Positions 3,615-61,467 are shown, counted from the first letter of the stretch. The stretch: DNA of 64,000 nucleotides from Waddliaceae bacterium (GCA_963724325.1 CAVRUH010000007.1:96001-160000); one strand, 5' to 3'. The notes: a model not told the origin generated them from the letters alone. Program-made: numbers and translations.

Positions 3615-3663
3615 ACATCAATTCTGGTACATTCTCTATCACAAAACTACAAGGAAATGTGCT

Positions 3664-8187: not shown

Positions 8188-9426
8188 ATGAATAAATTAG
8201 TAAGCTTTTCAAATAATTATTTAGGAATTAATACAGGTGTTGAACAAGTCAAAAAACCTAATCCAGCTTTAAATGTATTAAGGGTCGCAAGCTTTATTTT
8301 GACAGTAGGCCTTCTACCCGCATTTTGTAGTATTGTTTTGTTACTCGCTGGCCGGGTCAAACCAATCAATAAAGAATCTGCTCCAGAAGTAGTTAAAGTT
8401 ACCGAACAGGCCAGTAAAGTTTTATTTAATAGATCTAGTGAAGTTGAAAATGACTCTCAAGTCCAAAAGGACTTAGAAGAGGAGAATCAACGATTAAAAA
8501 CAGAACTGGATGTGCTAAAGCAGACTCCTTTGCCAAAGCCAGTTGCTATTCACAATGAAAAACTTCAAAAAGATCTTAATGATGCAAGAAGAGAAAATAT
8601 AGAATTAAAAGAACAAATTGAAGCATCAAAGGATGATTCTCTGCCAGATTTGGAAGTTGTTATAGATGAACAGCTTCAAAAGGACCTGAATGCTGCCAAT
8701 GAGAAAATGGAACAACTAACAGAAGAACTTCAACGATTAAAGGATAGTAATTTGCTTGAGTCGCCTGTGGCATTAGGACAACCATTGCCTAATGTTGATA
8801 ATAATGAAGAGCTTCTACGAGAATTAAAAACCGCCCAAGAAGAAGAAGAAAGGCTTGGGGGCGAAGTAAAACAGTTAAAAGAGGTAATTGGTCGACTGAA
8901 CACCAGTTTTAAAGAAGAGGCAGCGAATATGAAAGCCGAACACGCACTGTTATTAGAAAATAATAAGCATAGCCAAGATCAAGAATTGAATAAATTACGC
9001 AATGCCAATGAAAGAATGAGAACCGAAAATAGTGAAATTCAACATGAAAATAAGAATTTACATAACCAGATTGCAGATCTGGAAAGTCAGTTGAAAAGAT
9101 CGCCGAAATCCTCTCCAACTATAGTGCGAGAGCAGACTGAAATTGAGATCATGAAGGGAGATGATCAAAAATTGCAAATCAAAGACTTAAAGGAAGAAAT
9201 TGTCAAATTACGTAATGAAAATGCATCTTTGATAGCAGACGAAAAGGCTGTAGTGGCTACCCGCGAAAGAGCCCAGGCTAAGATGTTAGAAAAAGATACT
9301 AATGCTGATCAACTTGAAGAATTAAAAACTGCTTTAAATACATTTATGAACGATTACAATGCAGATAATGATCCTGGCGATCTGACACTAAAATTCATTC
9401 AAGAAATGCAAAAAAAATTGGTGTAA
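8188..9426 (+). CDS. Inc-like/T3SS-effector-like protein (N-terminal hydrophobic hairpin + coiled coil)
   Basis: LRVASFILTVGLLPAFCSIVLLLAG near the N-terminus, then a long coiled coil. Confidence 0.65.
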   Translation: MNKLVSFSNNYLGINTGVEQVKKPNPALNVLRVASFILTVGLLPAFCSIVLLLAGRVKPINKESAPEVVKVTEQASKVLFNRSSEVENDSQVQKDLEEENQRLKTELDVLKQTPLPKPVAIHNEKLQKDLNDARRENIELKEQIEASKDDSLPDLEVVIDEQLQKDLNAANEKMEQLTEELQRLKDSNLLESPVALGQPLPNVDNNEELLRELKTAQEEEERLGGEVKQLKEVIGRLNTSFKEEAANMKAEHALLLENNKHSQDQELNKLRNANERMRTENSEIQHENKNLHNQIADLESQLKRSPKSSPTIVREQTEIEIMKGDDQKLQIKDLKEEIVKLRNENASLIADEKAVVATRERAQAKMLEKDTNADQLEELKTALNTFMNDYNADNDPGDLTLKFIQEMQKKLV

Positions 9427-9454
9427 ATTTTTATAGAGTTTTACTAATTGTTAT

Positions 9455-9982
9455 TTAGGATTTTATCTTATGCAACTTGAGGCCCATAAAGATCATGGCA
9501 AGCCCAAGGAATAGGAAATAGATCCCAACATATAGCCCAAGAACCCAAAGTGAGTTATTTGGCCAGCCATTCCAAATGAGAAGACCAAGAATCACAGATA
9601 AGATACCATTCAATAGAAGACCACTCCAACGAAGTATCGACCAATATCTCAAGGCATAGACTATCCTGAGGGCCCCTTCAACAAAGAAATATATGGCAAG
9701 TAACAAAGTCAAGGTCACTGTTGCAACAATCGGGTGCAAAATAATCAGTGCTCCTGCAATAAATGTAATAATGGCTCCAATATACCCGACGAATTTCAGT
9801 GAATCCTCAGTCTTATATGTTCTGGCAAATTGAACTATCCCGCCAATCATCAAAAGTGATCCTATCAAGATTTCAATGCTGAGCGTCATGATCTGAGGCG
9901 AACCTAAGGCAAATACTCCTAATAGGAATAAAACAATTCCCTCAAATAGAAAATACTTCCAAAATGTTTGTATAGATTGCAT
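9455..9982 (-). CDS. HdeD/DUF308 family membrane protein
   Basis: Six hydrophobic helices, F.FEGIV..LLG, WP..SLWVLG. Confidence 0.85.
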   Translation of the reverse strand: MQSIQTFWKYFLFEGIVLFLLGVFALGSPQIMTLSIEILIGSLLMIGGIVQFARTYKTEDSLKFVGYIGAIITFIAGALIILHPIVATVTLTLLLAIYFFVEGALRIVYALRYWSILRWSGLLLNGILSVILGLLIWNGWPNNSLWVLGLYVGIYFLFLGLAMIFMGLKLHKIKS

Positions 9983-31991: not shown

Positions 31992-32009
31992 CTAAATCTA
32001 TCCCCTTAT

Positions 32010-34736: not shown

Positions 34737-34810
34737 TATGCAGCTCCTATCTTTGTTCGATTTTTTCTTTTCGCAAATAATAATACATTCAGAATTTTAA
34801 TAATGCCATT

Positions 34811-37585
34811 TCAATCTATTCCTCTATTTTTTTGATCAATAAGAAATGCTTTTGCAACTCGCAAGTCACCATTTTGGCTAATGATATCGTAGACAGAGTT
34901 ACCGTATTTATCTAGAGCATCCAGAGAATGCCCTTTCTTAATTAATTCTCGAAAGAGAGAAAGCCATCCAATGTGGCAGGCAGTGTGCAAGGGCGTTTCA
35001 TTTGGAGAGATTGCTCCATATTCCATCACATCAATAAAAACCATTCGAGCAATTTCATCAAAATTTGGGTGTTCACCAGGAATTTTCTCCAAACGACTAT
35101 CTATGAACATGTGCAAAGGGGACTGTCGTTTAAAACAGTAATATGCTTCTAGATGTTTGCATGCTCCTCTTTCACATGCATATTGGATCATCTCCTTTAA
35201 GACTGCCTTGCATTCATTCCACTCACTTTCGCTTTGAGGCTGTTGATCCTTCCATGATGACCCAAAAGATCGAACGGACAGACATATTTTATGAAGTACT
35301 GTTATCCCTTTGTTATTTGGATTTGAAAAGTCGGGTATACGATTAAAAGCCTTTCTTACTGCATTCCAGAATGGGCGTCTCGGCCATGTTTTTTGGCATT
35401 CATAGAATGATTTCACCGGCCATTCCTGATTTTCGCCTAATTCAATACATGAAAGAATGGAATCATATTCTTCCTCGCTCAGGTTTGCACTAGAACCTTC
35501 AATAGCAAACCAATGCATAGCTTTTTGGATCTCTTGCCTGCCATTCTCAGTCTTTTTAGCAAGTGCCATTGCTTTTTTGAGAAGGTCGATTACATGGTTT
35601 GAGGGTCGATAAAGAATAAGATTTGCAACAAGCATCTTAATGCACTTGGGAAAGTTAAAAACTTTCGGATTAAGGAGAATCCATGTTGCGATCTCATGCT
35701 GATGTTTTGCTTTTTCAAAAAGAGCATCTAGTAGATGGACTAAATATTTTGCACTAATTTTGCTGATATCTGTAATGAATTGATTCCACTCTAGCTTATC
35801 AATTTTTTCTCTGAAGTATCCTCCAGCTGGGGTGTCATAGGGGTTCCATTTACTTTCATAAGACAAAATCTTTACTTTTTCTTCATGGCTGAATTTATCG
35901 GCTATTGTTTTATAGAAAACATACCCATTTTTTTCAAATATTTCTGGCAAGTTTGGTTTACAGACAATTTGCTGCCTTGTAAATAACTCCAGTAAGGGAT
36001 CAATCAAGGTAAGATCCTTTACGTAATTGATTAGATATCCTCCATCTTGAATATAAAGAATAGGATTACAGTGCTCCAGAATATAGAGAATTCTTTCCTT
36101 ATTGCCGTTTATAATTTCTTTATACAATGCCCGACCGGCAGTTTGTCCTGTGAGAGATTCTATCGGCTTTTTACCCAAATCGTAAAGCCTGTCAAATGCA
36201 CTTTCAGGTTTAGTGTGCTTAAAGGTACCATCTTTTTCACAAAAAGTTTCTCCATGCTCTAAGCAGTATTCTAATATTTCATTAAAGTGTGAAAATAGAT
36301 GAATGATAGAGGGACCTCCCTCATAAATGGGTCCTAAAGGATATCCAATTTCCATTATAAGAAATCGCATGATTTCATAACTAATAATATGCGTCTTGTC
36401 TTCTATTTGGTGCAGTAAAGATTTGCCATTAGTCAGTGGGCGCTTAAAATCGTACTGATGCTTACAAAATACCTTTAGAATATCCATAGCTATGTCTTCT
36501 TTTTCCCATCCTAAAATTGCTTCAAGAGGAAATTCGCCATATTGATCTTTTTCATAGGGGTTACATCCTGCATAAAGTAGGATATCGACAATTTGCGGTT
36601 TAGTTTCTTTTACAATATATTTATCATTAAGCATTCGATTTATACAATCATCTTTATTGTCATTTTTCCAAGGAAAAACACATCTTGCCATGTGGAGATT
36701 GGATAGAGGAATCTGGATATCAGGAGAGGCCACGGCCACATAAGGACCTAATAAGGTATCATCTAAGGAATTACCACGATCTACAAACCATCGAATAAGT
36801 CTTACGGACATTGTGGACCTTTCCTCTAAAAAGCAGCGTAAAAAATCATCAGGAATTGTCTTGCCGACATAAATGATATCTAGCAATTCAATCATTCTAT
36901 CGTCACCGAATTGTTCTGGTAAAAGCAACATTGATTTGAAATCGGTTACCTGAAATCCTCGATCAAGTAACTTTTTGATGTCATCATAATCTCCATTCCG
37001 CAGAGCAAAGTATAGGGGGTCATAGTTGATATTTTTGTCAATTTTCAGAACTTTATTTATGCCATCTTGATTTCCAGAACGGCTAATTCCTATCAAAATG
37101 TACCTATAGAGCTCTTTTTTCTTATTACTTTCAGCAATGTCCTTAACCCAACCCCTATCCAGGAATTCCAGAAATGTCTCCGAGAAGCTTTCAAGATAGA
37201 AGTTGTAAATTGACTCTTTGGTGGTGAGGTCTTCAAGAGCCCGCTGAGCCCACTGTGATATTTTTGGATATGCTAATTTTTTATTTGCATCAGAAAGTGA
37301 CTGCCATAATGATGAAATATGATCGAATATCAAACATTCATTATTGTGTGCTATCTGAACCAAAGCAAATTTTATTGCCAAAGGCGCTCCCTTGGTTGCA
37401 CTAGACCAGTCCAAAGATTTTGAGTGAGTGTCTTTTAACCAAATCTTTTTAATTATCTCCTGAGCAACTTGTATTGTTTCAGCACTATCATCATGAATGA
37501 TCGTATGAGACCAAGCATTAACGGCCTCTGTAAAATTGACCTCCATTTGGGTTGGAGATATTGTTGTAGAAGTGGTGGGTATCAT
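34811..37585 (-). CDS. Ankyrin-repeat protein (paralog of 32010..34736)
   Basis: DPLYFAL, DQYGEFPL, GITVLH, ETPLHTAC, DKYGNS; AGGAG RBS. Confidence 0.85.
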   Translation of the reverse strand: MIPTTSTTISPTQMEVNFTEAVNAWSHTIIHDDSAETIQVAQEIIKKIWLKDTHSKSLDWSSATKGAPLAIKFALVQIAHNNECLIFDHISSLWQSLSDANKKLAYPKISQWAQRALEDLTTKESIYNFYLESFSETFLEFLDRGWVKDIAESNKKKELYRYILIGISRSGNQDGINKVLKIDKNINYDPLYFALRNGDYDDIKKLLDRGFQVTDFKSMLLLPEQFGDDRMIELLDIIYVGKTIPDDFLRCFLEERSTMSVRLIRWFVDRGNSLDDTLLGPYVAVASPDIQIPLSNLHMARCVFPWKNDNKDDCINRMLNDKYIVKETKPQIVDILLYAGCNPYEKDQYGEFPLEAILGWEKEDIAMDILKVFCKHQYDFKRPLTNGKSLLHQIEDKTHIISYEIMRFLIMEIGYPLGPIYEGGPSIIHLFSHFNEILEYCLEHGETFCEKDGTFKHTKPESAFDRLYDLGKKPIESLTGQTAGRALYKEIINGNKERILYILEHCNPILYIQDGGYLINYVKDLTLIDPLLELFTRQQIVCKPNLPEIFEKNGYVFYKTIADKFSHEEKVKILSYESKWNPYDTPAGGYFREKIDKLEWNQFITDISKISAKYLVHLLDALFEKAKHQHEIATWILLNPKVFNFPKCIKMLVANLILYRPSNHVIDLLKKAMALAKKTENGRQEIQKAMHWFAIEGSSANLSEEEYDSILSCIELGENQEWPVKSFYECQKTWPRRPFWNAVRKAFNRIPDFSNPNNKGITVLHKICLSVRSFGSSWKDQQPQSESEWNECKAVLKEMIQYACERGACKHLEAYYCFKRQSPLHMFIDSRLEKIPGEHPNFDEIARMVFIDVMEYGAISPNETPLHTACHIGWLSLFRELIKKGHSLDALDKYGNSVYDIISQNGDLRVAKAFLIDQKNRGID

Positions 37586-44727: not shown

Positions 44728-46191
44728 ATGCCATCAACAGGAATATACAACCAGCCTCTAGCATTATTGACCGATCTTTATCAATTGACCATGTCCTATG
44801 GCTATTGGAAAAATGGGCTCGATAAAAAAGAAACAGTTTTTCAACTGTTTTTCCGTAAACAACCCTTTAAAGGTGGATTTACCGTTGCCGCAGGCCTCGA
44901 AATGGCCATAAAATTCATCGAAAACTTTAAATTCGAAGAGAGTGATTTCGCATATCTCGCAACACTTAAAGACTCCACCGGTCACAACCTATTTACCCCT
45001 GATTTTTTTGACTACCTCCGTGATTTTAAATTCACCTGCGATATCGACGCCGTTCCTGAAGGTACTATCGTTTTTCCATACGAACCTCTTCTTCGAGTCA
45101 CCGGACCTCTCATCCAATGCCAACTTCTCGAAACACCTCTGCTTAATCAAATTAATTTTCCCTCGCTCATTGCGACCAAAGCTGCTCGAGTCTGCCTTGC
45201 TGCCAAAGGAGACAGCGTCATGGAATTTGGCCTCCGCCGGGCTCAAGGGATCGACGGAGGCATGTCGGCCAGCCGCGCTGCCTATATTGGCGGCTGTTCA
45301 TCCACCTCAAACGTCCTCGCCGGAAAACTCTTTAATATCCCCGTCGCCGGAACCCATTCACACAGCTGGGTCATGATATTCGAAAAAGAAGAAGAGGCTT
45401 TTAAAGCCTATGCTAAAGCCTACCCTACAAATAGCGTTTTTCTCGTCGATACATTCAACACCATAGAAGGTGTTAAAAAAGCAATACGCATTGGAGAATG
45501 GCTTCGCTCACAAGGGAATGAATTGGCCGGCATCAGACTTGATTCCGGAGACCTCGCTCAACTTTCTATCATCAGCCGCAAAATGCTTGACGATGCTGGA
45601 TTTAAAGATGCCAAAATCGTAGCCAGCAACGAACTCGATGAAACTATCATTAACGAATTAAAGCAACAAGGAGCTCAAATTTCGGTCTGGGGAGTAGGGA
45701 CCAACCTTGTCACAGGTAAACATCAAGGCGCGCTCGATGGAGTATATAAGCTTTCAGCAGTACGTGATCCAGGTGAACCATGGCACTACAGACTTAAACT
45801 TTCTGAGCAAATGACAAAAATATCCGACCCTGGAATCCTTCAAATCCGCCGCTTCAAAACGGACAATGAAAACATCGCAGATGCCATCTACGACATACAT
45901 TCTGATGTCTCCAATGGATGCGTCATCTATGATCCGTTAGATCATACTCGTGAAAAAAAATTGGGCAATGGAATGGAAAGCGTCGATCTTTTAGTACCCA
46001 TCATGCGAAAAGGACAAACCGTATATAAATTTCCTAAACTTTCTGATGTGAGGCAGAATACCCAAAAGGAACTTAATCAATTTGCGCAGGGGATAAAGCG
46101 ATTTTTGAATCCCCATCTCTATTTTGCTGGAATTGAAAAGTCTCTTTATGAGAAAAAAGTTGAATTAATTAAGCATATACGGAAGTTATGA
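44728..46191 (+). CDS. pncB: Nicotinate phosphoribosyltransferase
   Basis: LLTDLYQLTM, EFGLRRAQG, GTHSHSW, LVDT, GIRLDSGDL. Confidence 0.96.
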   Translation: MPSTGIYNQPLALLTDLYQLTMSYGYWKNGLDKKETVFQLFFRKQPFKGGFTVAAGLEMAIKFIENFKFEESDFAYLATLKDSTGHNLFTPDFFDYLRDFKFTCDIDAVPEGTIVFPYEPLLRVTGPLIQCQLLETPLLNQINFPSLIATKAARVCLAAKGDSVMEFGLRRAQGIDGGMSASRAAYIGGCSSTSNVLAGKLFNIPVAGTHSHSWVMIFEKEEEAFKAYAKAYPTNSVFLVDTFNTIEGVKKAIRIGEWLRSQGNELAGIRLDSGDLAQLSIISRKMLDDAGFKDAKIVASNELDETIINELKQQGAQISVWGVGTNLVTGKHQGALDGVYKLSAVRDPGEPWHYRLKLSEQMTKISDPGILQIRRFKTDNENIADAIYDIHSDVSNGCVIYDPLDHTREKKLGNGMESVDLLVPIMRKGQTVYKFPKLSDVRQNTQKELNQFAQGIKRFLNPHLYFAGIEKSLYEKKVELIKHIRKL

Positions 46192-46805
46192 AAGCATTAT
46201 TAGTCGTGGATATTCAGAATGACTTTCTTCCTGGCGGAGCTTTGGGGGTCAATGGAGGCAATGAGATTATACCAATTGTTAACGCTCTTTTGGAAAAGCC
46301 CTTTGATCTTATTGTTGCATGTAAGGATTGGCATCCTTTGAATCATTGTAGTTTTGCGAAGACGCATAATAAAAGGGTAGGGGATCAGATTGAACTTATG
46401 GGAAGAAAGCAGATACTCTGGCCGGTGCATTGTGTTCAGAATACCTTTGGAGCAGAATTTTCTTCAAAACTTGATTCTTCGAAAATTGAAAAAACCTTTT
46501 TGAAGGGGACAGAGGCGCAAATTGACAGTTATGGGGCTTTTTTTGATAATGGCCATTTGCGTTCGACGGGACTTGATGATTATCTTAAGAGTAAAAAGAT
46601 TACGGACCTTTACATAGCTGGATTGACAACGGATTATTGTGTGAAGTATACTGTGCTTGATGCGTGTAAACTGAAATATAATACTTACGTGATACAGGAT
46701 GGATGTCGTGCAGTCAACCTCAATCCTGGTGATGGGGTAAATGCTCTCGATTTAATGGCTCAGTCTGGTGCGCACATAATTAATTCGATAGAATGTATAT
46801 TTTAG
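46188..46805 (+). CDS. pncA: Nicotinamidase/pyrazinamidase
   Basis: VDIQNDFLPGGAL, DWHP, WPVHCVQ, GLTTDYCV. Confidence 0.95.
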   Translation: MKALLVVDIQNDFLPGGALGVNGGNEIIPIVNALLEKPFDLIVACKDWHPLNHCSFAKTHNKRVGDQIELMGRKQILWPVHCVQNTFGAEFSSKLDSSKIEKTFLKGTEAQIDSYGAFFDNGHLRSTGLDDYLKSKKITDLYIAGLTTDYCVKYTVLDACKLKYNTYVIQDGCRAVNLNPGDGVNALDLMAQSGAHIINSIECIF

Positions 46806-47090: not shown

Positions 47091-47164
47091 GGGGCAATAG
47101 CTCAGTCGGTTAGAGCAGCGGACTCATAACCCGCGGGTCACTGGTTCAAGTCCAGTTTGCCCCA
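47091..47164 (+). tRNA. tRNA with CAU anticodon (probably tRNA-Ile2; elongator Met not excluded)
   Basis: Cloverleaf GGGGCAA/TTGCCCC, D-arm GCTC/GAGC, loop CTCATAA, T-arm ACTGG-TTCAAGT-CCAGT; resembles bacterial Ile2; CCA not encoded. Confidence 0.93.
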
Positions 47165-47779
47165 CATTTTTTTTACAGGACAAACTTATGACACTCATAG
47201 AATCCAAAATGGAATTTGCCGAAAGGAACCATGCGGTACTTCTATCCCTAGAGGCTCAGATTGTAGCGCACTATCAAAAACGTCCTCGCCTTCATGATCA
47301 CAATGTGATTCGCGTTTTAGAGGCTCTCATAAAGCACTTTAGGGCTTTAGCGACAAATTTCCCATTGCCTCAGCATTCATTATCTGAATTCGAGGGTGAA
47401 ATTTATCTTAGCATTCAATACAATCTAGAAAAATCGGAAGCCCTAACTCCGAATGATTCCTGTGTCCTTTTAAAGTTCCTCAAAAAATCTGTAGAGCTAA
47501 ACAACAAGAGATCGGGCTCACAGGGTTACTTAAACTTCATCAGCCGCTTCATCGAAGTTGAAATAGAGGATTAGAAACCCGAGTCACTCACCTTATTAAC
47601 ATTAAAATATGTGAGTTAGGCTTCCGCATTCCCTAAATGGTTATTTTCAAGAAAAACTTATTTGTTTTTACTCTTCAATAACACAATTGATTTTCAGTGA
47701 CTTATCAGCTTTAAAGCATAATCTTCACGTGTTCAAGAAGAGCCTTCGTTCGCTTCGCTCACTACGGCCAGATGCGCCC
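47123..47779 (+). repeat. ~657-bp direct repeat, copy 1 (tRNA 3' half + 128-aa gene + AT-rich arm)
   Basis: Near-identical to 55270-55927; the first ~250 bp also at 60444-60695. Confidence 0.95.
47188..47574 (+). CDS. Conserved hypothetical 128-aa helical protein (att-proximal gene, copy 1)
   Basis: AGGA RBS; KFLKKSV...GSQGYLNFISRF. Confidence 0.8.
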   Translation: MTLIESKMEFAERNHAVLLSLEAQIVAHYQKRPRLHDHNVIRVLEALIKHFRALATNFPLPQHSLSEFEGEIYLSIQYNLEKSEALTPNDSCVLLKFLKKSVELNNKRSGSQGYLNFISRFIEVEIED

Positions 47780-47819
47780 TCCCTTATTTTTTGCCTTAGC
47801 GAGCGCAGCGTGCGAAGGC
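47740..47819. repeat. Imperfect GC-rich hairpin (left arm only at ~55890-55911)
   Basis: GCCTTCGTTCGCTTCGCTCACT ... AGCGAGCGCAGCGTGCGAAGGC. Confidence 0.55.
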
Positions 47820-49122: not shown

Positions 49123-49380
49123 GGTCCAATTCACAGACATAGGTAACACTTTGATTCACAAACATAGGTAACACTTTTCAAAATATGGTATAATACTCTC
49201 ATCATTAACAATTTAGGGAGTATTTATGCCTTGGGAGAACTTGAAAGTGGAAAATCTTAGGTTAAAACTGATTCAATCCTTCTTGAAGGGTGAAGAGACA
49301 ATGACAGACTTATGTTTAGAGAATGGAATAAGTCGAAAAACTGGGTATAAATGGTTAGCGAGATATGAGAAATATGGGGC
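49123..49380 (+). mobile_element. IS481-family left end + transposase N-terminal fragment
   Basis: Tandem CACA(G/A)ACATAGGTAACACTTT motifs; MPWE...LC..NGISRKTGYKWLARY..YG HTH. Confidence 0.8.
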
Positions 49381-50242
49381 CACTGTGCTTATGGAATGCA
49401 ATCAATTGGAAACTTGGCTTTTTGAATCACCAGAGCCTTCTGAAACAGCATCGACTAATGCAGCACACTGCATAAAATGTTGGCGTGATTATCTTGAAAT
49501 TAAAGATGCTTACTATGGGGATTTTGAGGAGTTTGAGTTGCCTGAGCCGAAAGAGGGAGAAATTCTGCAAGATTATATCATGCGCATGGCAAGGTTGGTT
49601 GAAGAGGAAGGAAAAGGGTCTAGACTTGAGTGGCGTGCGCTCAAATCCTTTTTGGGTTACATGCGAAATTTGGCTCATGAAGAAATTGCTTTCATCGAGC
49701 AAATCTTTCCTTTTAAAATGAATATCCACGATTCAAGGATTATTCGACTGATTGAGCCGGAGGTTTACCCGATCTCACAGGCAATTGCCGCGGACATTCT
49801 CAAGGAACTGGCCAGGATGTGTAAATATGGAAGGCCGAATGCTAAGCATGGGGCTGCTGAAGCACTTGGGTTGTGCTGGTTGTGTTTATCAGCATCGCGC
49901 ATGCGATTGCCTATCACTCTCACTGATATTCATGGCACGAAAAAAACGTCAGTTTTTGCCGATGAAAAATGTGCTAAATTGCTGGTACCAACTATCTTTG
50001 GAAATAGGTCTCTAAGAATCTCGCGACGACTGGCAAAATACCTGTCAGCGCTTGCTGGGATTTCATCAATAGATCCAAGAAAAACTATTCTGCAGAGGCC
50101 TAAGAGGTCATTAATGAGAGTATTGGATAGAGCTATTGAAAATCTTAGACTCGATCCAAAATTAGGAAATATAACTTTTGTAACCTTAATTTCTTCGCCC
50201 GACATCTCGGGTGGCGATCATCGTTATGTCCGTAATTCTTAA
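49226..50242 (+). CDS. Chimeric ORF: IS481 HTH fused to a hypothetical domain with possible degenerate tyrosine-recombinase-like fold
   Basis: First ~51 aa are IS481-like; the remainder has no DDE motif. Confidence 0.55.
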   Translation: MPWENLKVENLRLKLIQSFLKGEETMTDLCLENGISRKTGYKWLARYEKYGATVLMECNQLETWLFESPEPSETASTNAAHCIKCWRDYLEIKDAYYGDFEEFELPEPKEGEILQDYIMRMARLVEEEGKGSRLEWRALKSFLGYMRNLAHEEIAFIEQIFPFKMNIHDSRIIRLIEPEVYPISQAIAADILKELARMCKYGRPNAKHGAAEALGLCWLCLSASRMRLPITLTDIHGTKKTSVFADEKCAKLLVPTIFGNRSLRISRRLAKYLSALAGISSIDPRKTILQRPKRSLMRVLDRAIENLRLDPKLGNITFVTLISSPDISGGDHRYVRNS

Positions 50243-51277: not shown

Positions 51278-52285
51278 TCAGAAGGTGCCATAGAGGTAGT
51301 TCCAATATGCCGTGAATATTTCAGACTGTTCTGAGGTCAGAGGCTCAACAATAATAAAGCTTTCATCACTGCGTGTAAATGAAGATTGTGACCAGTTTGC
51401 CGAACCATTAACCAAAATACTGTTATCGATGCACATAAGCTTATTATGCATGAAGCTTAATTTTGGGTTGACCTTAACCTCTATCCCTGCCGCCATTAGC
51501 TTTGGTAGATTTCCACCAAAATCAGGTGCTACCACCTGTACTTTTATTCCTCGTTGGTGGGCTTTAATTACTGCATTTGCAAGATCATTGTTGGTCCAAA
51601 CCATCATGGCAATATGGATGCTTGTATTCGCTTGATCGATTTTTTCAATGAGAAATTGTTTAGATTGCTCGTTGATTGACTTTTCTACTTTTTTTTGTGG
51701 AAACCCATCATGAGGCAGAAGACAAAAATAGATGTCTTGACTGAGTAGAGAAATAAGTAATGGTCCATGTTCGGTTCGGTGAGCACTTAAGCGAAATATA
51801 TCTGCTTCGTGATGAAGATATTGCGCTAACTCAGTTGAATTAAATCTTACCATTAAATTTTCTTGGGTTTGATATGCAGATGTTGTAAAGTTTGCGGATC
51901 CAATCCAAATTTCACTTTCATCTACAACCAGTATCTTGTGATGAAGATGACCTTCTCCTGTCGTCCTCGTCACAATTTCAATATTTGGCAGCTTTTTGCT
52001 TGCAATTTCACCTAAATGGTCTCTATCGATCACGACTGTGACTTTTAATCCCTCGTTTGCTTTCTGATTGAGTGCTGCGATAATTTCGGGATCAGATAGG
52101 CTGAATGTAATAATCAGAATTGATTTTTCAGCGTGAAGAATGCTTTCCTTTATCGAAACGCTTAAGTGTTTACGGTCTTGGGTATGATATAGCTGTGCGT
52201 CAGCTGCTACTGTAGCTTCAAGGCTGCCTACGCAAAATACCATAGCTGCTAATAGACTGAAAATTGATAATTTAAATTTTAACAT
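51278..52285 (-). CDS. Secreted phospholipase D / Nuc-like protein with two HKD motifs
   Basis: Signal peptide; HHKILVVD..WIGSANFT and HNKLMCID..NGSANWS. Confidence 0.9.
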   Translation of the reverse strand: MLKFKLSIFSLLAAMVFCVGSLEATVAADAQLYHTQDRKHLSVSIKESILHAEKSILIITFSLSDPEIIAALNQKANEGLKVTVVIDRDHLGEIASKKLPNIEIVTRTTGEGHLHHKILVVDESEIWIGSANFTTSAYQTQENLMVRFNSTELAQYLHHEADIFRLSAHRTEHGPLLISLLSQDIYFCLLPHDGFPQKKVEKSINEQSKQFLIEKIDQANTSIHIAMMVWTNNDLANAVIKAHQRGIKVQVVAPDFGGNLPKLMAAGIEVKVNPKLSFMHNKLMCIDNSILVNGSANWSQSSFTRSDESFIIVEPLTSEQSEIFTAYWNYLYGTF

Positions 52286-52299
52286 GGTTAACCTTCCTT

Positions 52300-53259
52300 T
52301 TAATTATTCCAAGCTTGCAATAGATTTTGTCTCAATTTATCTCTCCTCATGGGGTCGAATGTAGAAGATTTGATTAAATTGCGAAGTTCGAGCTCCCAAA
52401 TCTTAAGCTTGCCAGGCTGAATTTTTGTATAACGTTTTATGATAAGCGGTGATGTAGGATTAAGTACCCCACTAATGCCTAAAACAAGTCGCAATTCTTG
52501 TGGAAATTCATCTGAAGGAGTGTCGAGGAAATATTCACTGATCAATTGATTCTCAGCAATGAATCCATTGGGATATGATGCATACCCCACTGTATTTCCA
52601 AAAGCATATAAAGAGACAGAGCTATCAAAAAATTGCAGAAGAACGCCGGCTTTACTGTCCAGATGTTGATGTGAGATAGTATAAGCCACCTCTATCAATG
52701 ATGAGTCCATTCCAAGTTCTTCGAACATGTGTTTCAAGTCCTTTCGCTGTTGATAGGTGTCGCTACCTACATTCTTCGTAAAATTTAAGACTGAGTTTAA
52801 CCCTAGGCGGTTGTGATTCGAGTAGATGCAGAAGTTCAAGGGGAAAGTACTTTCTGCGACCAACTGCGAATAGTGTATTTCACTTACAAATACCCGTGAA
52901 AAAACTTCTAGAGATTCTAGAAAGTTGTTTTTTTTAAATGGCGTTGAAACGAAATGAAAATCCTTTCTGATGGGCACATCTAGGACCTCTTCGACAATTA
53001 TACGAATAATGTCTTGGTAAACTAGAAAATCTAAACTGTCTCCATGATATCCCATGAAGCTGATATTTTCCTGAGCTATAGCTTTATCGAATAACTCACG
53101 GTAATCTAATCCAACACCTTTTCCTTTCAGATTATACTTAATCTGATCGAGTCCAACAAATGCAACATATTGCTTTGAAGGAGATTCAAATTCAGCACCA
53201 TGGATTCTGATGGTCCCACAAATAAATAACAAGCTTAAAAGTAGGATTTTATTATTCAT
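52300..53259 (-). CDS. Secreted hypothetical protein, paralog of 53252..54274 (possible ADP-ribosyltransferase-like fold)
   Basis: Signal peptide; FMGYHGDS..YQDIIR, RKDFHF, LLQFFD, FPQELRL, LNP.SPL.I.R. Confidence 0.7.
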   Translation of the reverse strand: MNNKILLLSLLFICGTIRIHGAEFESPSKQYVAFVGLDQIKYNLKGKGVGLDYRELFDKAIAQENISFMGYHGDSLDFLVYQDIIRIIVEEVLDVPIRKDFHFVSTPFKKNNFLESLEVFSRVFVSEIHYSQLVAESTFPLNFCIYSNHNRLGLNSVLNFTKNVGSDTYQQRKDLKHMFEELGMDSSLIEVAYTISHQHLDSKAGVLLQFFDSSVSLYAFGNTVGYASYPNGFIAENQLISEYFLDTPSDEFPQELRLVLGISGVLNPTSPLIIKRYTKIQPGKLKIWELELRNLIKSSTFDPMRRDKLRQNLLQAWNN

Positions 53260-54274
53260 TTTTTTCTCTCCACATGTTCAATAACAATTCACGATACTGT
53301 ACGACTTTTGTTTCATCGTAAGGCAGTGTTCTGATTGCTTCACGTAAGTTAGATTCATACTCATTGATTAGTTCGGGATCATTCCTGTCAAAGCGCATGA
53401 TATATAGAGGGGAATACGGATTTAGAGTGACGGAGTTGTTAATGACAAGCCGGAATTGTGCAGGAAAAGCTGTAGAATTAACGCCAAGGAATATTTCGGA
53501 CATTCTTTTCTCATTGAGAATTGGACGTCCGCCGGGCAAGGCATTATAGCATAATTGATTTATCAAATCATAATGATTTTGAAATGCATTGTGATGAGAA
53601 AAGTCGAAGAATTGGAATAACACAGCATTATCCATGGTCATCAAAGGGTTGCCTATTGCAAATAAATCAGGTATCGCTTCGGTTGGTATTCCTAAAGAAT
53701 CAAATAAATAATTTAGTTGAGTTTGGAATCCAACGGTCGTTGCAGATCTATTCCTTGTAAACCAGTAGACAGTGCATTCCCCAAAGTTATCGAAATTCCC
53801 AAAGAGTGAATAATTCATCGACAACAACTGCTCTCGTTGTTCTGGTAACGCGTCAATCACTGCAGGATAGTCTTTCAGGAATTGCTCCTCACTTTCCCGA
53901 TTTAGCATAGGTTTTCCTGGGATGCGCAGAAAGTGAAAGTCTTTTCTAATATGGATCTCGCAAATTTCCTCTATTATTATCCGAATAATATCTTGATAAA
54001 TACGAAATCCTTGAGTGCTGCTATGGTATCCAAAAAAACCAAGCTCTTCGTGGGGAATGATGTGCTCGAAGAAATTGCGATGCTCCAAAGACAACCCGTT
54101 TGTCTTCAGCGCTTGCAATATTTTCTCGTAATTGTAAAATCCGCAAAAGCGATTTGTTGGGGATGCATATACGGCTTCGGTTCGAATCGGCATATCGAAA
54201 TCTACGATTGCCGGAGTGGCAAGCAATGATAAATTACAAAGTGCAATTAAAATAAATAAAATTAATCTAATCAT
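53252..54274 (-). CDS. Secreted hypothetical protein, paralog of 52300..53259 (possible ADP-ribosyltransferase-like fold)
   Basis: Signal peptide; FFGYHSS..YQDIIR, RKDFHF, SMNYSLFGN..GECT, FPAQFRL. Confidence 0.7.
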   Translation of the reverse strand: MIRLILFILIALCNLSLLATPAIVDFDMPIRTEAVYASPTNRFCGFYNYEKILQALKTNGLSLEHRNFFEHIIPHEELGFFGYHSSTQGFRIYQDIIRIIIEEICEIHIRKDFHFLRIPGKPMLNRESEEQFLKDYPAVIDALPEQREQLLSMNYSLFGNFDNFGECTVYWFTRNRSATTVGFQTQLNYLFDSLGIPTEAIPDLFAIGNPLMTMDNAVLFQFFDFSHHNAFQNHYDLINQLCYNALPGGRPILNEKRMSEIFLGVNSTAFPAQFRLVINNSVTLNPYSPLYIMRFDRNDPELINEYESNLREAIRTLPYDETKVVQYRELLLNMWREKNE

Positions 54275-54425
54275 AATTATTTAACCAATATATTTAAGAT
54301 GAATACATTTTAACAATTATCAATTTATAAGTCAATCATAAACATGCATTTTTATATCGATTTGAATGGACCAATGCAATATGCTTTGTGGGGATAAGTC
54401 TAAATTCAACCATAAAGGAGAAATT

Positions 54426-55019
54426 ATGTTGAACAGTTTTATCCGAAAGTTTTTATTTATCATTGTTCTTACGACATCGCTGTCATCCCCTATTTTTGCT
54501 GTGGATGACTTTCAAGTTGAGTATCAACCACAGGTCATCGAAAAAGTAATTCAGTTTGAGAAGAAAAGCATCTTAAAGCAAAAAGCAAATGGATACCTAT
54601 ATGTCGAAGTGTCTCGAGATTTTATTGCCGAGGCTCTTCCTCTAATTGATGCCCCGGGAAAAATTGTACACCCGAGTCATTATACTAGCAAGAAAGGGAT
54701 TGGAGCCCATATCAGCATTATTTATGAAAATGAGTTGATTGAACATGAAATCTGGGAGATCGATGAGTTGGGGCAAGAGTTCACATTCTCGGTCATGGAG
54801 TTGAGGACGGTAAAACTAAATGACAATAACAAGATGAAAAAACTTTGGCTTTTGGCAGTAGCTGCTCCCGAGTTAGAGAAACTTCGTGAGGGTTATGGTC
54901 TATCATCCCGTTTAAAAAACCATGATTTCCATATAACAATAGGAACTCAAGTACCTGGTAAAGTCTATGTTTTATTCGATGAGATAATCATTGAAGAGGA
55001 GCTGGAAGAAGCAGCATAA
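54426..55019 (+). CDS. Secreted 2H phosphoesterase-family protein
   Basis: AAAGGAG RBS; signal peptide; two Hx(S/T)x motifs GAHISII and DFHITIG. Confidence 0.75.
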   Translation: MLNSFIRKFLFIIVLTTSLSSPIFAVDDFQVEYQPQVIEKVIQFEKKSILKQKANGYLYVEVSRDFIAEALPLIDAPGKIVHPSHYTSKKGIGAHISIIYENELIEHEIWEIDELGQEFTFSVMELRTVKLNDNNKMKKLWLLAVAAPELEKLREGYGLSSRLKNHDFHITIGTQVPGKVYVLFDEIIIEEELEEAA

Positions 55020-55133: not shown

Positions 55134-55311
55134 GTTGCAATGGCGGTGCAATGATTTACCTATTTATCCAATAATATCCATCAGAAACCAGTTGCAATTT
55201 GATTGCATATCCTTTAGCATGTTACTCATAGCGGTTGGATGGTGTTGATTGGAGTGGAAGTCCCCCTCCCTCATAACCCGCGGGTCACTGGTTCAAGTCC
55301 AGTTTGCCCCA
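55134..55311 (+). other. attP-like junction between islands A and B (arm + tRNA 3' half 55270-55311)
   Basis: tRNA identity starts exactly at the 7-nt anticodon loop CTCATAA; upstream 48 bp match 60396-60443 at 42/48; GTGCA-type short repeats. Confidence 0.85.
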
Positions 55312-55927
55312 CATTTTTTTTACAGGACAAACTTATGACACTCATAGAATCCAAAATGGAATTTGCCGAAAGGAACCATGCTATACTTCTCTCACTGGAG
55401 GCTCAGATTGTAGCGCACTATCAAAAACGTCCTCGCCTTCATGATCACAATGTGATTCGCGTTTTAGAGGCTCTCATAAAGCACTTTAGGGCTTTAGCGA
55501 CAAATTTTCCATTGCCTCAGCATTCATTATCTGAATTCGAGGGTGAAATTTATCTTAGCATTCAATACAATCTAGAAAAAACGGAAGCCCTAACTCCGAA
55601 TGATTCCTGTGTCCTTTTAAAGTTCCTCAAAAAATCTGTAGAGCTAAACAACAAGAGATCGGGCTCACAGGGTTACTTAAACTTCATCAGCCGCTTCATC
55701 GAAGTTGAAATAGAGGATTAGAAACTGGAGTCACTCACCTTATTCACATTAAAATATGTGAGTTAGGCCCTCCGCGTACCCTCAATGGTTATTTTCAAGA
55801 AAAACTTATTTGTTTTTACTCTTCAATAATGCAATTGATTTTCAGTGACTTATCAGCTTTAAAGCATAATCTTCACGTGTTCAAGAAGAGCCTTCGTTCG
55901 CTTCGCTCACTACGGCCAGATGCGCCC
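55270..55927 (+). repeat. ~657-bp direct repeat, copy 2
   Basis: Near-identical to 47123-47779. Confidence 0.95.
55335..55721 (+). CDS. Conserved hypothetical 128-aa protein (copy 2)
   Basis: Two aa differences from 47188..47574 (V17I and S->T in EKSE/EKTE). Confidence 0.8.
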   Translation: MTLIESKMEFAERNHAILLSLEAQIVAHYQKRPRLHDHNVIRVLEALIKHFRALATNFPLPQHSLSEFEGEIYLSIQYNLEKTEALTPNDSCVLLKFLKKSVELNNKRSGSQGYLNFISRFIEVEIED

Positions 55928-56042
55928 GGCGTTATTAAAGTAGACCCAACTGTCTAGCTAAAAAGAGGAACATTTATTATTATGTGAAAGTTTGCGAAGT
56001 AATACCGAAAAATAATGTTCTCCATTGAGATTAGAGAGATTA

Positions 56043-56577: not shown

Positions 56578-57852
56578 TTATCTAATGTGAAAAGAAGATA
56601 CTAACTTATTCCATTCTTCGGAAATTTGTGGAGTTTCGCTATTAAAAGATTGAGTAATTTGATAGAGTCTTCTTTTTTTGAGCACAAACAATGTTCTATA
56701 AATTTTACCTGAATTTTCTGCTAGAAGCTCAATAGAGGGACAACCTTCATGCTCGCCTAAGTTCCAAGATAAAACAATCATTTTATTGCTCAATCCGAGC
56801 CAAGCTAGATCAATGGAACCGTTTTTATCCATTTGACTTTGAATCTCGTTTATCAGCATAGAGATTGAAGGGTCAGAATATTCAAGAATAATTTCGCTAA
56901 ACATCGTCATATTTAAAACTTTCAGCTCAGGGTCTTCAAAATCTGGGTGATTAATCTCTTTTAGAATACCCATATAAGTAACCATTGGTAAAGTGACAAT
57001 GGATTCGATAAAATAGCCGCTGTCACCATACTCTCCAAATAAAGTCTTGGGAGCGAAAGGCCCAAGTCTAGAATAGAAAATTCTGTGATAAATGTTATAT
57101 TTTGGAGGAATATTAATGTCATAAGTGTTCCGACCCAATAAGATATTGCGTTGTACAGTTTCACAAAACAAATTTGCCCACAAAAGTTTATGCCAATCAT
57201 AGTTGAGAATGCTTTGATACTGTCGGTATGATTCTGTAGTAGTTATCCAAGAAGGAATCATTGTGTTTTGAGATTCAATTTTAAATCCTAAATGATATGC
57301 GGGTGTTCCCGAAAAAGCTGGATATATTCCCCATGCAGAAGCTAAATAGAAGATATTTTGAATTTCTAGGCGATATACGAATTGATTTATAGCAACAAGG
57401 AGTCCACGCCGTTCAGATAAATTTCGAAAATTTACGCTAAAATTTGTGGCGCTATTATCGCAATAATACACAGACTCTTTGCCATAAACATGTCCTTTTT
57501 TAAAATAGGAAAAGCCGTCGTTTTCAATTTTATTTAAAAGATCATCCATCCAACTTTTATATTTTACTGAGTCATTTGCTATTGAATTTGGAAGTTTATA
57601 AATCCAAACTTTAAAAGGACCCATGTGTGTTTCACTATAATAATGGGTGATTTCCACATTTTCTTCATGATAGCTTTCCATTCTAGTAGCATCCCAAGTG
57701 TGAAGAGTAATGCGATGATCTTTTGGCCCTGGAATTTCTATTGTATATCCCTTGTTAAGCGATAGAAGCCCCATCAAGTCTATTGCTATTCCCCCAGATA
57801 AAGACCCAAAATGCACCAAAATAAAAAATGAGTATATTAATTTTTTCATCAT
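56578..57852 (-). CDS. Hypothetical exported protein
   Basis: 424 aa, N-terminal signal-like segment; C-terminal beta-rich end (YQIT...SSFHIR). Confidence 0.65.
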   Translation of the reverse strand: MMKKLIYSFFILVHFGSLSGGIAIDLMGLLSLNKGYTIEIPGPKDHRITLHTWDATRMESYHEENVEITHYYSETHMGPFKVWIYKLPNSIANDSVKYKSWMDDLLNKIENDGFSYFKKGHVYGKESVYYCDNSATNFSVNFRNLSERRGLLVAINQFVYRLEIQNIFYLASAWGIYPAFSGTPAYHLGFKIESQNTMIPSWITTTESYRQYQSILNYDWHKLLWANLFCETVQRNILLGRNTYDINIPPKYNIYHRIFYSRLGPFAPKTLFGEYGDSGYFIESIVTLPMVTYMGILKEINHPDFEDPELKVLNMTMFSEIILEYSDPSISMLINEIQSQMDKNGSIDLAWLGLSNKMIVLSWNLGEHEGCPSIELLAENSGKIYRTLFVLKKRRLYQITQSFNSETPQISEEWNKLVSSFHIR

Positions 57853-57995: not shown

Positions 57996-58265
57996 ATTTG
58001 AGTTTTTGATCAGCTGATAAAATATTTCAGGGCAAAAGCAACTAATTTTCCATTCCAAGAGTCTAAATTTTCTTTGCCTATTGAAAATGATTTATATGAT
58101 TCGCTTAAGGAATGTCTTGAGGAAACTGAAGGCAAAACAGCTAATGAAGCATATAACATTTTTAAATTCTTAAAAAAATCAGTCGAATTTTGGAACAGAG
58201 AAGGGGGCTCTCAAGGCTGCCTTACATATATATCGCGCTTCATAGATGTTGAAGAAAAAAAATGA
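57996..58265 (+). pseudogene. 5'-truncated diverged paralog of the 128-aa att-proximal gene
   Basis: I*VFDQLIKYFRAKATNFP...KFLKKSVEFWNREGGSQGCLTYISRFIDVE aligns to IRVLEALIKHFRALATNFP...KFLKKSVELNNKRSGSQGYLNFISRFIEVE. Confidence 0.85.
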
Positions 58266-60308: not shown

Positions 60309-60485
60309 GTGCACTGGCGGTGCAACGGTGCAGTACTTTATCCATTTTCAACCGTCAAAATTCGGTAGCAATAAATACATAAGTCATTTATTATCTTACT
60401 CAAAGCGGTTGAGTGGTGTTGATTGGAGTGGTAGTCTTCCTCCCTCATAACCCGCGGGTCACTGGTTCAAGTCCAGTTTGCCCCA
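60309..60485 (+). other. attP-like junction between islands B and C (arm + tRNA 3' half 60444-60485)
   Basis: Third copy of CTCATAACCCGC...TTGCCCCA; GTGCA repeats; TAAGTCATTT IHF-like site. Confidence 0.85.
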
Positions 60486-60507
60486 CATTTTTTTACAGGA
60501 CAAACTT

Positions 60508-60695
60508 ATGACACTAATAGAATCCAAAATGGAATTTGCCGAAAGGAATCCTGCAATACTTCTCTCCCTAGAGGCTCAGATTGTAACGCACTATCAAAAA
60601 CGTCCTCGCCTTCATGATCACGATGTGATTCGCGTTTTAGAGGCTCTCATAAAGCACTTTAAGGCCTTAGCGACAAATTTCCCATTGCCTCAGCA
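60508..60695 (+). pseudogene. 128-aa gene copy 3, truncated by an IS481 end
   Basis: Identity to copy 1 stops after CCTCAGCA at 60695. Confidence 0.88.
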
Positions 60696-61467
60696 GGTGC
60701 GGTTACAGACATAGGTTACACTTTTATTGTTAAAATGTTATATAAAAAGCAGGGGGCAACTAGCCCCCTGCCAAAAAAACATCCGTCACCCATCGTCTCT
60801 CGGTCGCAGCGGGGAGTTTTCTTCTTGGTACCAATAATTATACTATGTATGGTCAAAAGATGCATTAGGAAAATACACAAGAAAACATCTAGAATTTTGA
60901 GTTTTGAGGGAGCTGTGGGGGTTTCTTCTTGGTCGGGGGTTTGGGGGCTGGCCCCCAATATATTCACTTCCGATCGTTGTCATTAGCGCTGCCTCCTTCT
61001 CTTAACTTTTGGTTTTTCAAGCCCTTCCTTTACAAGTTTTCCTAAGTATATAGGTCCATAATAAACATCATATTCCCCCTGTTCATTAGCCTTAAGACCA
61101 ACATATTCTCCAGTAAGCGTTTGTCCAATATAATGATCATTCTGATGTAACCATAAACAACCACTTGCACAAATCTTTCTAACAATCATTTTTTGTGTGT
61201 CGTATTCTGGTTTCCTTAAAACTCCATCCCAAGTCCGTAAGGATTTAGTATAAACACTTGCTGGTGTTTGCATATTCAAGGCTTCATGAGGCCTTTCAAA
61301 GTTATATTCGTCTAAGAATTTGCTGTTCGCTTGTATTTGCAATACAAGGGATGCTTTAGCAGGGTTTGCTACTTCTTGTTGTAGTGTAGAATGGAATCTC
61401 TCGTGCCTTCCATTTTCCTCAGGATGTCCTGGATTTATCCACTCAGGGATAACTCCAGCTTTAATTA
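60696..61467 (-). mobile_element. IS481-family remnant (transposase C-terminal half + right end)
   Basis: PGHPEENGRHERFHSTL, YNFERPHEALNMQTPASVY; end motif ACAGACATAGGTTACAC matches 49133-49149. Confidence 0.85.

Follow-up and report, generated by a model that had tools for sequence, protein, structure and literature searches.

A family of paired, predicted exported proteins in environmental chlamydiae with a putative ADP-ribosyltransferase fold and phosphoesterase gene partners

The four-gene locus

The stretch of DNA studied here (the window) comprises 64,000 nucleotides from a Waddliaceae bacterium (GCA_963724325.1, CAVRUH010000007.1:96001-160000), and the subject of this report is a group of four genes at positions 51,278 to 55,019, which encode a phospholipase D (PLD) superfamily phosphodiesterase, two paralogous proteins here called ParA and ParB, and a 2H phosphoesterase. 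A preliminary description made from the sequence alone had proposed three closely linked minus-strand genes and one divergent gene, all intact, and an open reading frame (ORF) listing recovered the four ORFs at exactly the same coordinates:

51278-52285, minus strand: PLD gene, 335 amino acids (aa); two-HKD PLD-superfamily phosphodiesterase of the Nuc/NucT/Zucchini kind, Sec-like N-terminus
52300-53259, minus strand: parB, 319 aa; B-type paralog, Sec-like N-terminus
53252-54274, minus strand: parA, 340 aa; A-type member of a putative new ADP-ribosyltransferase (ART)-fold family, Sec-like N-terminus
54275-54425, no strand: AT-rich stretch separating the divergent parA and 2H genes, containing the best promoter-like site of the region
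54426-55019, plus strand: 2H-SAK gene, 197 aa from the ATG at 54426 (frame open from 54366, 217 aa), divergent from parA

The parA and parB genes overlap by 8 nucleotides (nt), 14 nt separate parB from the PLD gene, and all four genes have strong homologues elsewhere. The 2H gene probably starts at the ATG at 54426, because an AAGGAG ribosome-binding site lies 7 nt 5' of it, and from this start the product has a putative signal peptide of classical form. For the minus-strand operon, a promoter-like site at 54335-54307 (TTGACT-17-TAAAAT with a TG) is a consensus match only, from a scan that gave 18 sites in the region against 13.9 (standard deviation 3.9) in shuffles and thus did not rise above chance; a scan of the same region yielded no convincing terminator. 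No RNA run was found to contain the region, and in four soil-metagenome DNA runs, all from one study, only small shares of it (0.06-0.11) occur.

All four proteins begin with a short charged region followed by a hydrophobic stretch, with a maximal 10-residue Kyte-Doolittle mean of 2.5-3.6. The pattern is absent from the cytoplasmic controls encoded by pncA and pncB, which reach 1.85 and 1.18 on the same measure. This pattern, from a hydrophobicity heuristic combined with inspection, is consistent with the signal peptides previously noted on all four proteins. By the same heuristic, Sec-like N-termini recur on orthologs of the four proteins and on two proteins encoded beside related gene pairs, a PARG (from an internal Met) and the Ppx protein of genome G089.

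A family of paired paralogs in environmental chlamydiae

ParA and ParB share 33% identity over 302 residues (E 5e-43), and neither matched any entry in Pfam, NCBIfam, PADLOC or the PDB sequences. A word-indexed search returned 41 relatives for ParA and 53 for ParB, none with a Pfam domain; the only name among them was 'hypothetical protein', from chlamydial metagenome-assembled genomes and Chlamydiales bacterium STE3, and a look-up of ten diverse family relatives gave no names. A profile search of 1.84 billion representatives extended the family to 632 proteins at E<=0.001, with 115 at E<=1e-30. When the family was scored in 400 genomes of the phylum it was present in 32 and in none of the 24 genomes of a small-genome genus (g8), and all 13 named genome records carrying it are chlamydial. 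Among the genomes searched, the family is confined to environmental chlamydiae. Comparison of the family alignment with the viral contigs of IMG/VR gave 178 pattern matches, none of which was confirmed, and the best score in the ESM Atlas, 0.85, was beneath the useful range. Our literature search, which covered 2H-SAK, 2H phosphoesterases and chlamydial ADP-ribosyltransferases outside subscription journals and supplements, found no description of the family.

A tree of 34 sequences resolved a B clade (support 100/99), an A clade (99/99) and a clade of stand-alone copies (100/100). The B clade contains every downstream member of a pair together with the upstream member of an inverted pair on another contig (C5) of the same genome. 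ParA of the window groups with its ortholog from G089, a genome of a different chlamydial family, outside the resolved A clade. For 19 of the 28 close ParA orthologs there is a ParB ortholog whose longest contig has exactly the same length and is presumably the same contig. The source genome itself carries five copies of the family: the window pair, the second pair on C5 and a single copy.

Among 75 long relatives scanned for fused domains, one protein (P0049) has a C-terminal NUDIX domain (E 3.8e-16), and the other 74 matched no family above threshold, with a single sub-threshold EF-hand_3. The insertion of 150-200 residues that distinguishes the family forms of 450-540 aa matched no known family either. 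An Ala/Gly-rich metagenome protein of 7623 aa (P0137) contains two family domains, at residues ~1811-2288 and 3652-4074.

Predicted fold of ParA and ParB

AlphaFold models of the two proteins, built independently from alignments of 26 (ParA) and 36 (ParB) sequences, are confident, with a predicted local distance difference test score (pLDDT) of 90.4 for each and a predicted template modelling score (pTM) of 0.86 for ParA and 0.87 for ParB. Each model was compared by VIA-align with 48,161 representative PDB chains and matches at Z>=2 were considered. All 39 chains retrieved by the ParA model belong to the ART superfamily, with a best Z of 3.5. DarT leads the matches (Z 3.5, 3.4 and 3.3) and is accompanied by diphtheria-toxin homologues, CNFy domain 4, RES, ParT and Tpt1, and further by pertussis toxin, LT, Rhs Tre toxins, PARPs and exotoxin A. 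The ParB model retrieved 56 chains, and 48 of the best 50 belong to the ART superfamily; these counts include CNFy, AvrPphF ORF2, 6b, CC0527 and VPA0770, which we take to be ART-fold proteins independently of their entry titles. The two remaining chains among the best 50 of the 56 are a phosphotransferase-system transporter and Avs3. Diphtheria toxin is the top match of ParB (Z 4.1, 104 residues aligned, 14% identity), DarT ranks second, and OspC3/CopC, SopF, Arr and Scabin are also found.

The matched ranges extend from just before the first core strand through the sixth, and both models match the split β-sheet core of ART structures, with weak scores. In both models the aligned ranges begin 7 residues ahead of the conserved His; the aligned range of diphtheria toxin likewise begins 7 residues ahead of what we take to be its His21. 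VIA-align itself cautions that a Z below 8 can reflect a common arrangement, and we have therefore given weight to the exclusivity of the matches rather than to their score. The models thus suggest that ParA and ParB form an unannotated family with a much-elaborated ART fold, a resemblance weak in score and exclusive in kind.

Against predicted viral structures, Foldseek matched both models to the same two uncharacterized giant-virus proteins and to nothing else at E<=0.001. These are A0A481Z173 of Mimivirus LCMiAC02 (E 1e-9 for ParA and 8.5e-7 for ParB, TM-score 0.39-0.54) and A0A1V0SG32 of Hokovirus HKV1 (E 2.9e-7 and 3e-7, TM-score 0.49-0.53), each with a Foldseek probability of 1.00. The top rows of the Foldseek search against the PDB, Tpa1, topoisomerase I and PI5P4K, were set aside at TM-scores of ~0.1.

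Conserved residues

The motifs pointed out in the preliminary description, GYH(G/S), S/P-x-N and Q-x-R/E-x-R, are present in both proteins and kept across the family. In ParA the conserved elements are Y83-H84, D112-F-H-F-L-R117-x-P, S152-x-N154, Q221/D224, Y243, Q273-x-R275, L284-N-P and R294, and their counterparts in ParB are Y71-H72, P140-x-N142, Q209/D212, Y226, E255-x-R257, L266-N-P and R276. Conservation was counted over 145 near-full-length representatives aligned to the family profile, of which ~44 long-insert forms are unaligned in the N-terminal part (ParA numbering):

Y83, end of strand 1 (80-86): 101 of 101 aligned
H84, end of strand 1: 91 of 101 aligned
Q94-D95 and E102-E103, following helix: Q94 95, D95 97, E102 78 and E103 73 of ~101 aligned
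D112-F-H-F-L-R117-x-P119, family-specific loop: F113 101, P119 98, R117 90 and H114 68 of ~102 aligned
S152, strand 2: 110 of 145
N154, strand 2: 125 of 145
Q221, strand 3: 129 of 145
Y243, strand 4: 116 of 145, plus 12 Phe
Position 273, start of strand 5 (273-277): Gln 109 and Glu 23 of 145
R275, strand 5: 126 of 145
N285 of L-N-P, after strand 5: 136 of 145
R294, strand 6: 125 of 145

Residues Q94, D95, E102 and E103 are invariant in our alignment A1. The A and B types differ systematically at three sites, where B-type members have Pro for S152 and Glu for Q273 and have lost R117 of the DFHFLR loop. A His closes strand 1 in both window proteins (Y83-H84 and Y71-H72), with Thr, Asn or Tyr in some paralogs, and the Gln/Glu of strand 5 is conserved together with Y243 and S152-x-N154; the assignment of these residues to catalytic positions is by strand order and not by superposition. 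The order His, Tyr, Gln/Glu on the expected strands of the models fits the ART type that we take to be designated H-Y-[EDQ], for which the prevalence of Gln and the Arg at the second position past the Gln/Glu are unusual.

Gene partners of the pair

In total, 14 distinct loci with an A/B pair were found. The following genes accompany the pair:

PLD directly after the pair: 7 of 14 loci (window, G089, G128, G399, L068, L069, L076)
2H-SAK within 2 kb: 4 of 14 loci (window, G089, where it is split over two frames, G201, L009)
Ppx/GppA-family gene adjoining parA: 3 of 14 loci (G089, G128, L076)
PARG adjacent: 2 of 14 loci (own contig C5, L073)
HAD hydrolase: 1 of 14 loci (L009)

At least one of PLD, 2H, Ppx/GppA and PARG is found at 11 of the 14 loci, the exceptions being the well-flanked pair of G048 and two short contigs. 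Orthologs of the 2H gene adjoin A/B pairs at L051 (split over two frames), L057 and L009; the L051 copy (9045-9724, G089) is broken by a frameshift or an assembly error. On contig C5 of the source genome (L006, 5229-8363), an inverted pair, B then A, lies directly 5' of, and in an operon with, a gene for a 420-aa microbial-type PARG (PF10021, E 1e-21) with a hydrophobic N-terminal segment after an internal Met, and a PARG ortholog also adjoins a metagenome pair (L073).

The four genes had been described as one module, and all four types do co-occur again in G089, which carries the closest orthologs (~70% identity), with subsets at 10 further loci; only the window and G089 have the complete set, however, and elsewhere the arrangement is centred on the pair, with the partners at the frequencies listed above. 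The conserved unit is therefore the A/B pair plus a variable accessory enzyme and not a fixed four-gene module. The pair itself is co-inherited and probably co-translated. Family copies within the same genus are more distant than the G089 orthologs. Since the closest orthologs are found in another chlamydial family, and given the cassette structure described below, the data indicate horizontal transfer of the module.

The module PLD matched PLDc_2 (PF13091) in two stretches (E 7.5e-45), and both of the HKD motifs reported earlier are readable in its translation as HxK(x)4D with GSAN. The two motifs and the profile match place it in the PLD superfamily as a Nuc/Zucchini-like member. The closest NCBIfam models are those of NucT, which it matches under their cut-offs (82 bits against 297), and hence it is not filed as NucT. 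Among the PDB sequences, its closest solved chains are MitoPLD (4ggj, E 3.3e-12), Nuc (1byr, 2.1e-9) and NucT (6ehi, 6.4e-8). In these relatives, Nuc, NucT and Zucchini (MitoPLD), the phosphodiesterase has a single HKD motif; the module PLD, in contrast, has two intact HKD halves fused in a single chain and is predicted to be exported. Its substrate may be nucleic acid, cardiolipin or an ADP-ribose adduct.

The fourth protein matched the Pfam family 2H-SAK (PF22547) over profile positions 2-119 of 124 and scored 64.3 bits (E 1.7e-17), where the cut-off is 27. Both of the Hx[ST] motifs reported earlier are present, as AHISI and FHITI, which supports its assignment to 2H-SAK. The PDB sequences gave only dUTPases at E 0.02-0.04, which we regard as chance matches. 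The 2H-SAK domain occurs in 131 of 401 genomes of the phylum, in none of 25 genomes of the small-genome genus g8 and in none of 14 control genomes. Cross-tabulation placed it in 14 of 32 genomes that have the ART-fold family and in 117 of 369 that lack it, an enrichment that is mild at most, among related genomes. In environmental chlamydiae, 2H-SAK is often found in tandem double-domain proteins of 350-440 aa.

Stand-alone family members on contig C1 of the source genome (L007, 7267-10770) and at L017 (5606-7933) adjoin genes for eukaryote-type Ser/Thr protein kinases, and at L007 the kinase carries a fused FGE-sulfatase domain, with a gene for a low-molecular-weight tyrosine phosphatase coming next.

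Proposed function and alternatives

The reading that we favour, with about as much belief as doubt, is that ParA and ParB represent a new ART-fold family that would use NAD+ outside the cytoplasm, its substrates being prepared or its ADP-ribose products processed by linked hydrolases. The reading builds on the observed genes, their paralogy, fold resemblance, residue conservation, linkage and island structure. From these we infer that both proteins, once exported by Sec past the inner membrane, bind NAD+ outside the bacterial cytoplasm and either transfer its ADP-ribose or simply release it. They might do so in the periplasm, in the inclusion lumen or in the host. Because several arginines are conserved, a phosphate-bearing acceptor such as a nucleic-acid end, a nucleotide, a phospho-lipid or a phospho-sugar is attractive; a host protein is an equally open candidate. 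The linked exported hydrolases would precede or follow this step. The PLD, of Nuc/Zucchini type, might make or cut phosphodiester-linked substrates or adducts, and the 2H enzyme might open cyclic phosphates such as ADP-ribose 1''-2'' cyclic phosphate. At other loci, the Ppx/GppA-family phosphatase, PARG and the fused NUDIX domain would trim or remove ADP-ribose derivatives. The earlier idea of a system that both writes and erases marks gains from the PARG genes beside two pairs and from the NUDIX fusion in one relative. The earlier tentative ART assignment of the paralogs is supported in part: the models are confident and VIA-align retrieved essentially ART-superfamily chains only, but the Z scores are weak, sequence profiles give no link, and Foldseek found no counterpart in the PDB. 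Neither of the two outcomes named beforehand as refuting the earlier interpretation, a fold other than ART and a lack of co-occurrence of the four genes elsewhere, was obtained.

Several observations weigh against the favoured reading. The VIA-align scores are low, at most 3.5 for ParA and 4.1 for ParB, and the Foldseek comparison of the ParA model with the PDB gave nothing at E<=0.001. None of the 26 alignment members matched an ART model of Pfam at E<=10 (scattered single hits to other models were read as noise), and the family profile had no match among the PDB sequences at the same threshold. The pocket placement of H84, Y243 and Q273 follows from strand order and from the starts of the matched ranges rather than from residue-level superposition. 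Within this putative pocket, Arg275 sits two residues after the Gln/Glu, where [QE]-x-E ARTs have their catalytic Glu; the third position is Gln, not Glu, in most members; and the His is missing in some paralogs, with Thr in the A-type protein of C5 and Tyr in 5 of 36 B-type sequences. As to the partners, PARG is linked at just two loci, NUDIX is fused in just one of the 75 long relatives scanned, the well-flanked pair in G048 is without any partner, and 2H-SAK is widespread in the phylum (131 of 401 genomes) independently of the ParA/ParB family.

The properties of the putative pocket could also mean that the fold is non-catalytic, the pair serving as a scaffold or binding module and its neighbours being unrelated exported proteins on the same islands. 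Such a role would accommodate the loss of His in some paralogs as well as Arg275 with its position relative to the Gln/Glu, and the structural matches do include ART-fold domains without known transferase activity, namely CNFy domain 4, AvrPphF ORF2 and protein 6b, which we take to be inactive as transferases. We nevertheless regard it as quite unlikely: around ten polar residues are 75-100% conserved over 145 divergent representatives, as is typical of an active site, and the same classes of phosphoesterase and ADP-ribose hydrolase recur beside the pair in unrelated contexts and, in one relative, as a fusion. A further possibility, that one member is an exported ART toxin directed at competitors or the host and its sister a degenerate copy that keeps it inactive until release, would account for the tandem overlapping genes that stay together at 14 loci, for the three conserved sites at which A and B differ (R117 lost in B, S152 to Pro, Q273 to Glu) and for the occurrence of the domain in a giant multidomain protein. 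We consider it very improbable, given that the conserved set is almost complete in each of the two members and each has a predicted signal peptide, that a third clade of the family occurs alone, and that an immunity protein normally resides in the cytoplasm and has no relationship to its toxin. According to PMC3482391, immunity proteins are mostly lacking in intracellular bacteria, and environmental chlamydiae use toxin-type domains on hosts without immunity genes.

A nutritional role would suit an organism that is auxotrophic for nucleotides. In the periplasm or inclusion, an exported catabolic battery would degrade NAD+, poly(ADP-ribose), polyphosphate, cyclic nucleotides and the nucleic acids of the host, the chlamydia would import the pieces, and the ART-fold pair would be NAD+ glycohydrolases or ADP-ribose-binding hydrolases that write no mark. 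All linked enzymes are indeed hydrolases with a Sec-like N-terminus, the module PLD is closest to nucleases, the pncA-pncB genes of the genome could use released nicotinamide, and other bacteria use periplasmic 2',3'-cyclic phosphodiesterases for scavenging. The ART fold also occurs in NADases, as in RES (PMC9503650). The distribution of the family is nevertheless patchy (32 of 400 phylum genomes) and the module lies on a mobile cassette, with its closest orthologs (~70%) in another chlamydial family, which gives it the look of accessory, transferred cargo rather than of core metabolism. Nor would a simple NADase need a strictly co-inherited A/B pair. The domain is also present twice in a 7623-aa giant protein and has look-alikes in giant viruses, and we hold scavenging to be rather unlikely.

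Our favoured reading, the use of NAD+ by an exported ART-fold pair with linked hydrolases, can be extended to a bolder form to which we assign only a small chance. ParA and ParB would be a two-subunit exported ADP-ribosyl 'writer' from a new ART clade common to environmental chlamydiae and giant viruses of protists, acting with a dedicated HKD phosphodiesterase. A phosphate-bearing or host target would be ADP-ribosylated and the adduct then cut or transferred at its phosphodiester, with a SidE-like phosphoribosyl linkage, or a nucleotide-derived host immune signal would be both written and erased; in both versions 2H, PARG, NUDIX and Ppx would be interchangeable erasers. If true, this would be a two-step chemistry with a PLD enzyme that has not been described before.

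ADP-ribosylation plays a central part in bacterial toxins, in defence systems and in the manipulation of hosts, and new ART clades have repeatedly brought new chemistry, including ADP-ribosylation of DNA bases, RNA phosphates and ubiquitin, and ADP-riboxanation. The family described here is unannotated and sizeable (632 representative clusters), with confident models and a conserved two-paralog design, and its set of partners (PLD, 2H, Ppx/GppA, PARG and NUDIX) points to NAD+ or ADP-ribose processing outside the bacterial cytoplasm. Amoeba-associated chlamydiae and giant-virus look-alikes place it in the arena of host, symbiont and virus, where effector chemistry often arises. ParA and ParB are small and soluble-looking, and the hypothesis is directly testable with recombinant proteins.

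Relation to known systems

The module is pair-centred, variable and carried on a mobile cassette, and is new within a known kind, that of ART and ADP-ribose-processing systems. In DarT-DarG, an ART toxin ADP-ribosylates DNA and a macrodomain protein erases the mark. DarT chains are the top structural matches of ParA and rank second for ParB, and a comparable coupling of ART-fold genes to a macro-fold ADP-ribose hydrolase is seen in the PARG genes beside the pairs at L006 and L073. In contrast to DarT, ParA and ParB are exported by prediction, form an A/B pair, have PLD rather than a macrodomain protein as their usual partner and contain ~150 extra insertion residues. The pair has no PADLOC or Pfam match, its members carry predicted signal peptides and PARG is found at 2 of the 14 loci only, and hence we do not assign it to DarTG. 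A role in anti-phage defence was rejected, as PADLOC returned only generic PLD (DrmC-type) matches and the proteins are exported by prediction.

The KptA/Tpt1 pathway, built on an ART-fold RNA 2'-phosphotransferase with 2H and Macro/Nudix enzymes, brings together the same enzyme classes as the loci described here (an ART fold with 2H, PARG and a NUDIX fusion), and Tpt1 chains are among the structural matches of ParA and ParB. Tpt1 has an Arg/His catalytic set, which the conserved arginines beside the His of the family recall. The strand-1 motif, however, is Tyr-His in ParA and ParB and Arg-His in KptA/Tpt1. The KptA family PF01885 (PTS_2-RNA) matched none of 26 family members, which therefore fall outside KptA, nor was it found in the 150 phylum genomes searched, with E. 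coli, D. radiodurans and M. acetivorans as positive controls. Cytoplasmic RNA repair of the KptA/Tpt1 kind would be excluded by the predicted export of ParA and ParB; a mechanistic similarity is possible. Published NAD+/ADP-ribose systems centred on KptA follow the logic of combining ART with 2H, Macro and Nudix; in them, ADP-ribose 1''-2'' cyclic phosphate is the substrate that the 2H enzyme opens, and one known protein joins KptA to Nudix (PMC9503650).

With ARTs of the diphtheria-toxin/PARP type (H-Y-E), the family shares a Y-H-G that ends core strand 1 and, as judged by strand order, a conserved Tyr and a strand 5 that starts with an acidic or amide residue. It differs from them in having mostly Gln at the third position, followed by a near-invariant Arg, in its large helical insertions and in its DFHFLRxP loop, and, unlike diphtheria toxin, ParA and ParB are without receptor-binding or translocation domains. 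The SidE effectors of Legionella have an mART domain that works with a phosphodiesterase domain. The module resembles them in coupling, by gene order only, an ART-type gene to a phosphodiesterase that could act on an ADP-ribose pyrophosphate; by description, which is the only level of this comparison, the phosphodiesterase of the module is a separate HKD/PLD enzyme and not of the SidE phosphodiesterase fold.

A mobile cassette at tRNA-Met

The source genome is assembled in 11 contigs (2.37 Mb), and the named relatives of the window proteins are all chlamydial. The module forms the right-hand cargo of a decayed 8.1-kb cassette integrated at a tRNA-Met gene, and at least one more cassette follows. 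The features that define this setting are:

44728-46191: pncB, upstream of the cassette
46188-46805: pncA, upstream of the cassette
47091-47165, plus strand: tRNA-Met (CAT), identified by ARAGORN; integration site and left end of cassette 1
55270-55312, plus strand: partial tRNA-Met copy comprising the 3' half, anticodon loop included; bounds the 8.1-kb cassette 1 on the right, with a further copy at 60443-60485

A family of direct repeats (D1) starts in the tRNA anticodon loop and comprises 47123-47422, 55270-55569 (98%) and 60443-60742 (76%). The preliminary description of the surroundings as an otherwise decayed island agrees with the content of the cassette, which includes a DUF927 fragment of 135 aa limited to positions 146-243 of the 284 in the profile, an ORF whose sole recognizable domain is a helix-turn-helix (HTH), and many short overlapping ORFs. 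It had also suspected that the adjacency to pncA and pncB is coincidental. This proves well founded, because the cassette integrated at the tRNA-Met that follows pncA, and a functional link to the two genes was rejected as the attachment structure at the tRNA explains their position.

The tandem cassettes (47123-47788, 55270-55936 and 60443-60742, also 58002-58262) each begin with the tRNA 3' half, after which comes one and the same small gene that encodes 128-160 aa without a Pfam family, and the repeats are 98%, 95% and 76% identical. The HTH-containing ORF of cassette 1 (49226-50242, 338 aa) has an N-terminal, transposase-like HTH of IS481 type and a C-terminal part that matches no family and ends in H-R-Y; this ORF possibly represents what is left of the cassette recombinase, or a divergent version of it. 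An ORF of 424 aa in the second cassette (56578-57852) has a signal-peptide-like N-terminus and no Pfam or NCBIfam family. Further upstream lies a row of three large paralogous genes (29082-37585; 969, 908 and 924 aa) that encode proteins with C-terminal ankyrin repeats, which are typical candidates for host-directed proteins.

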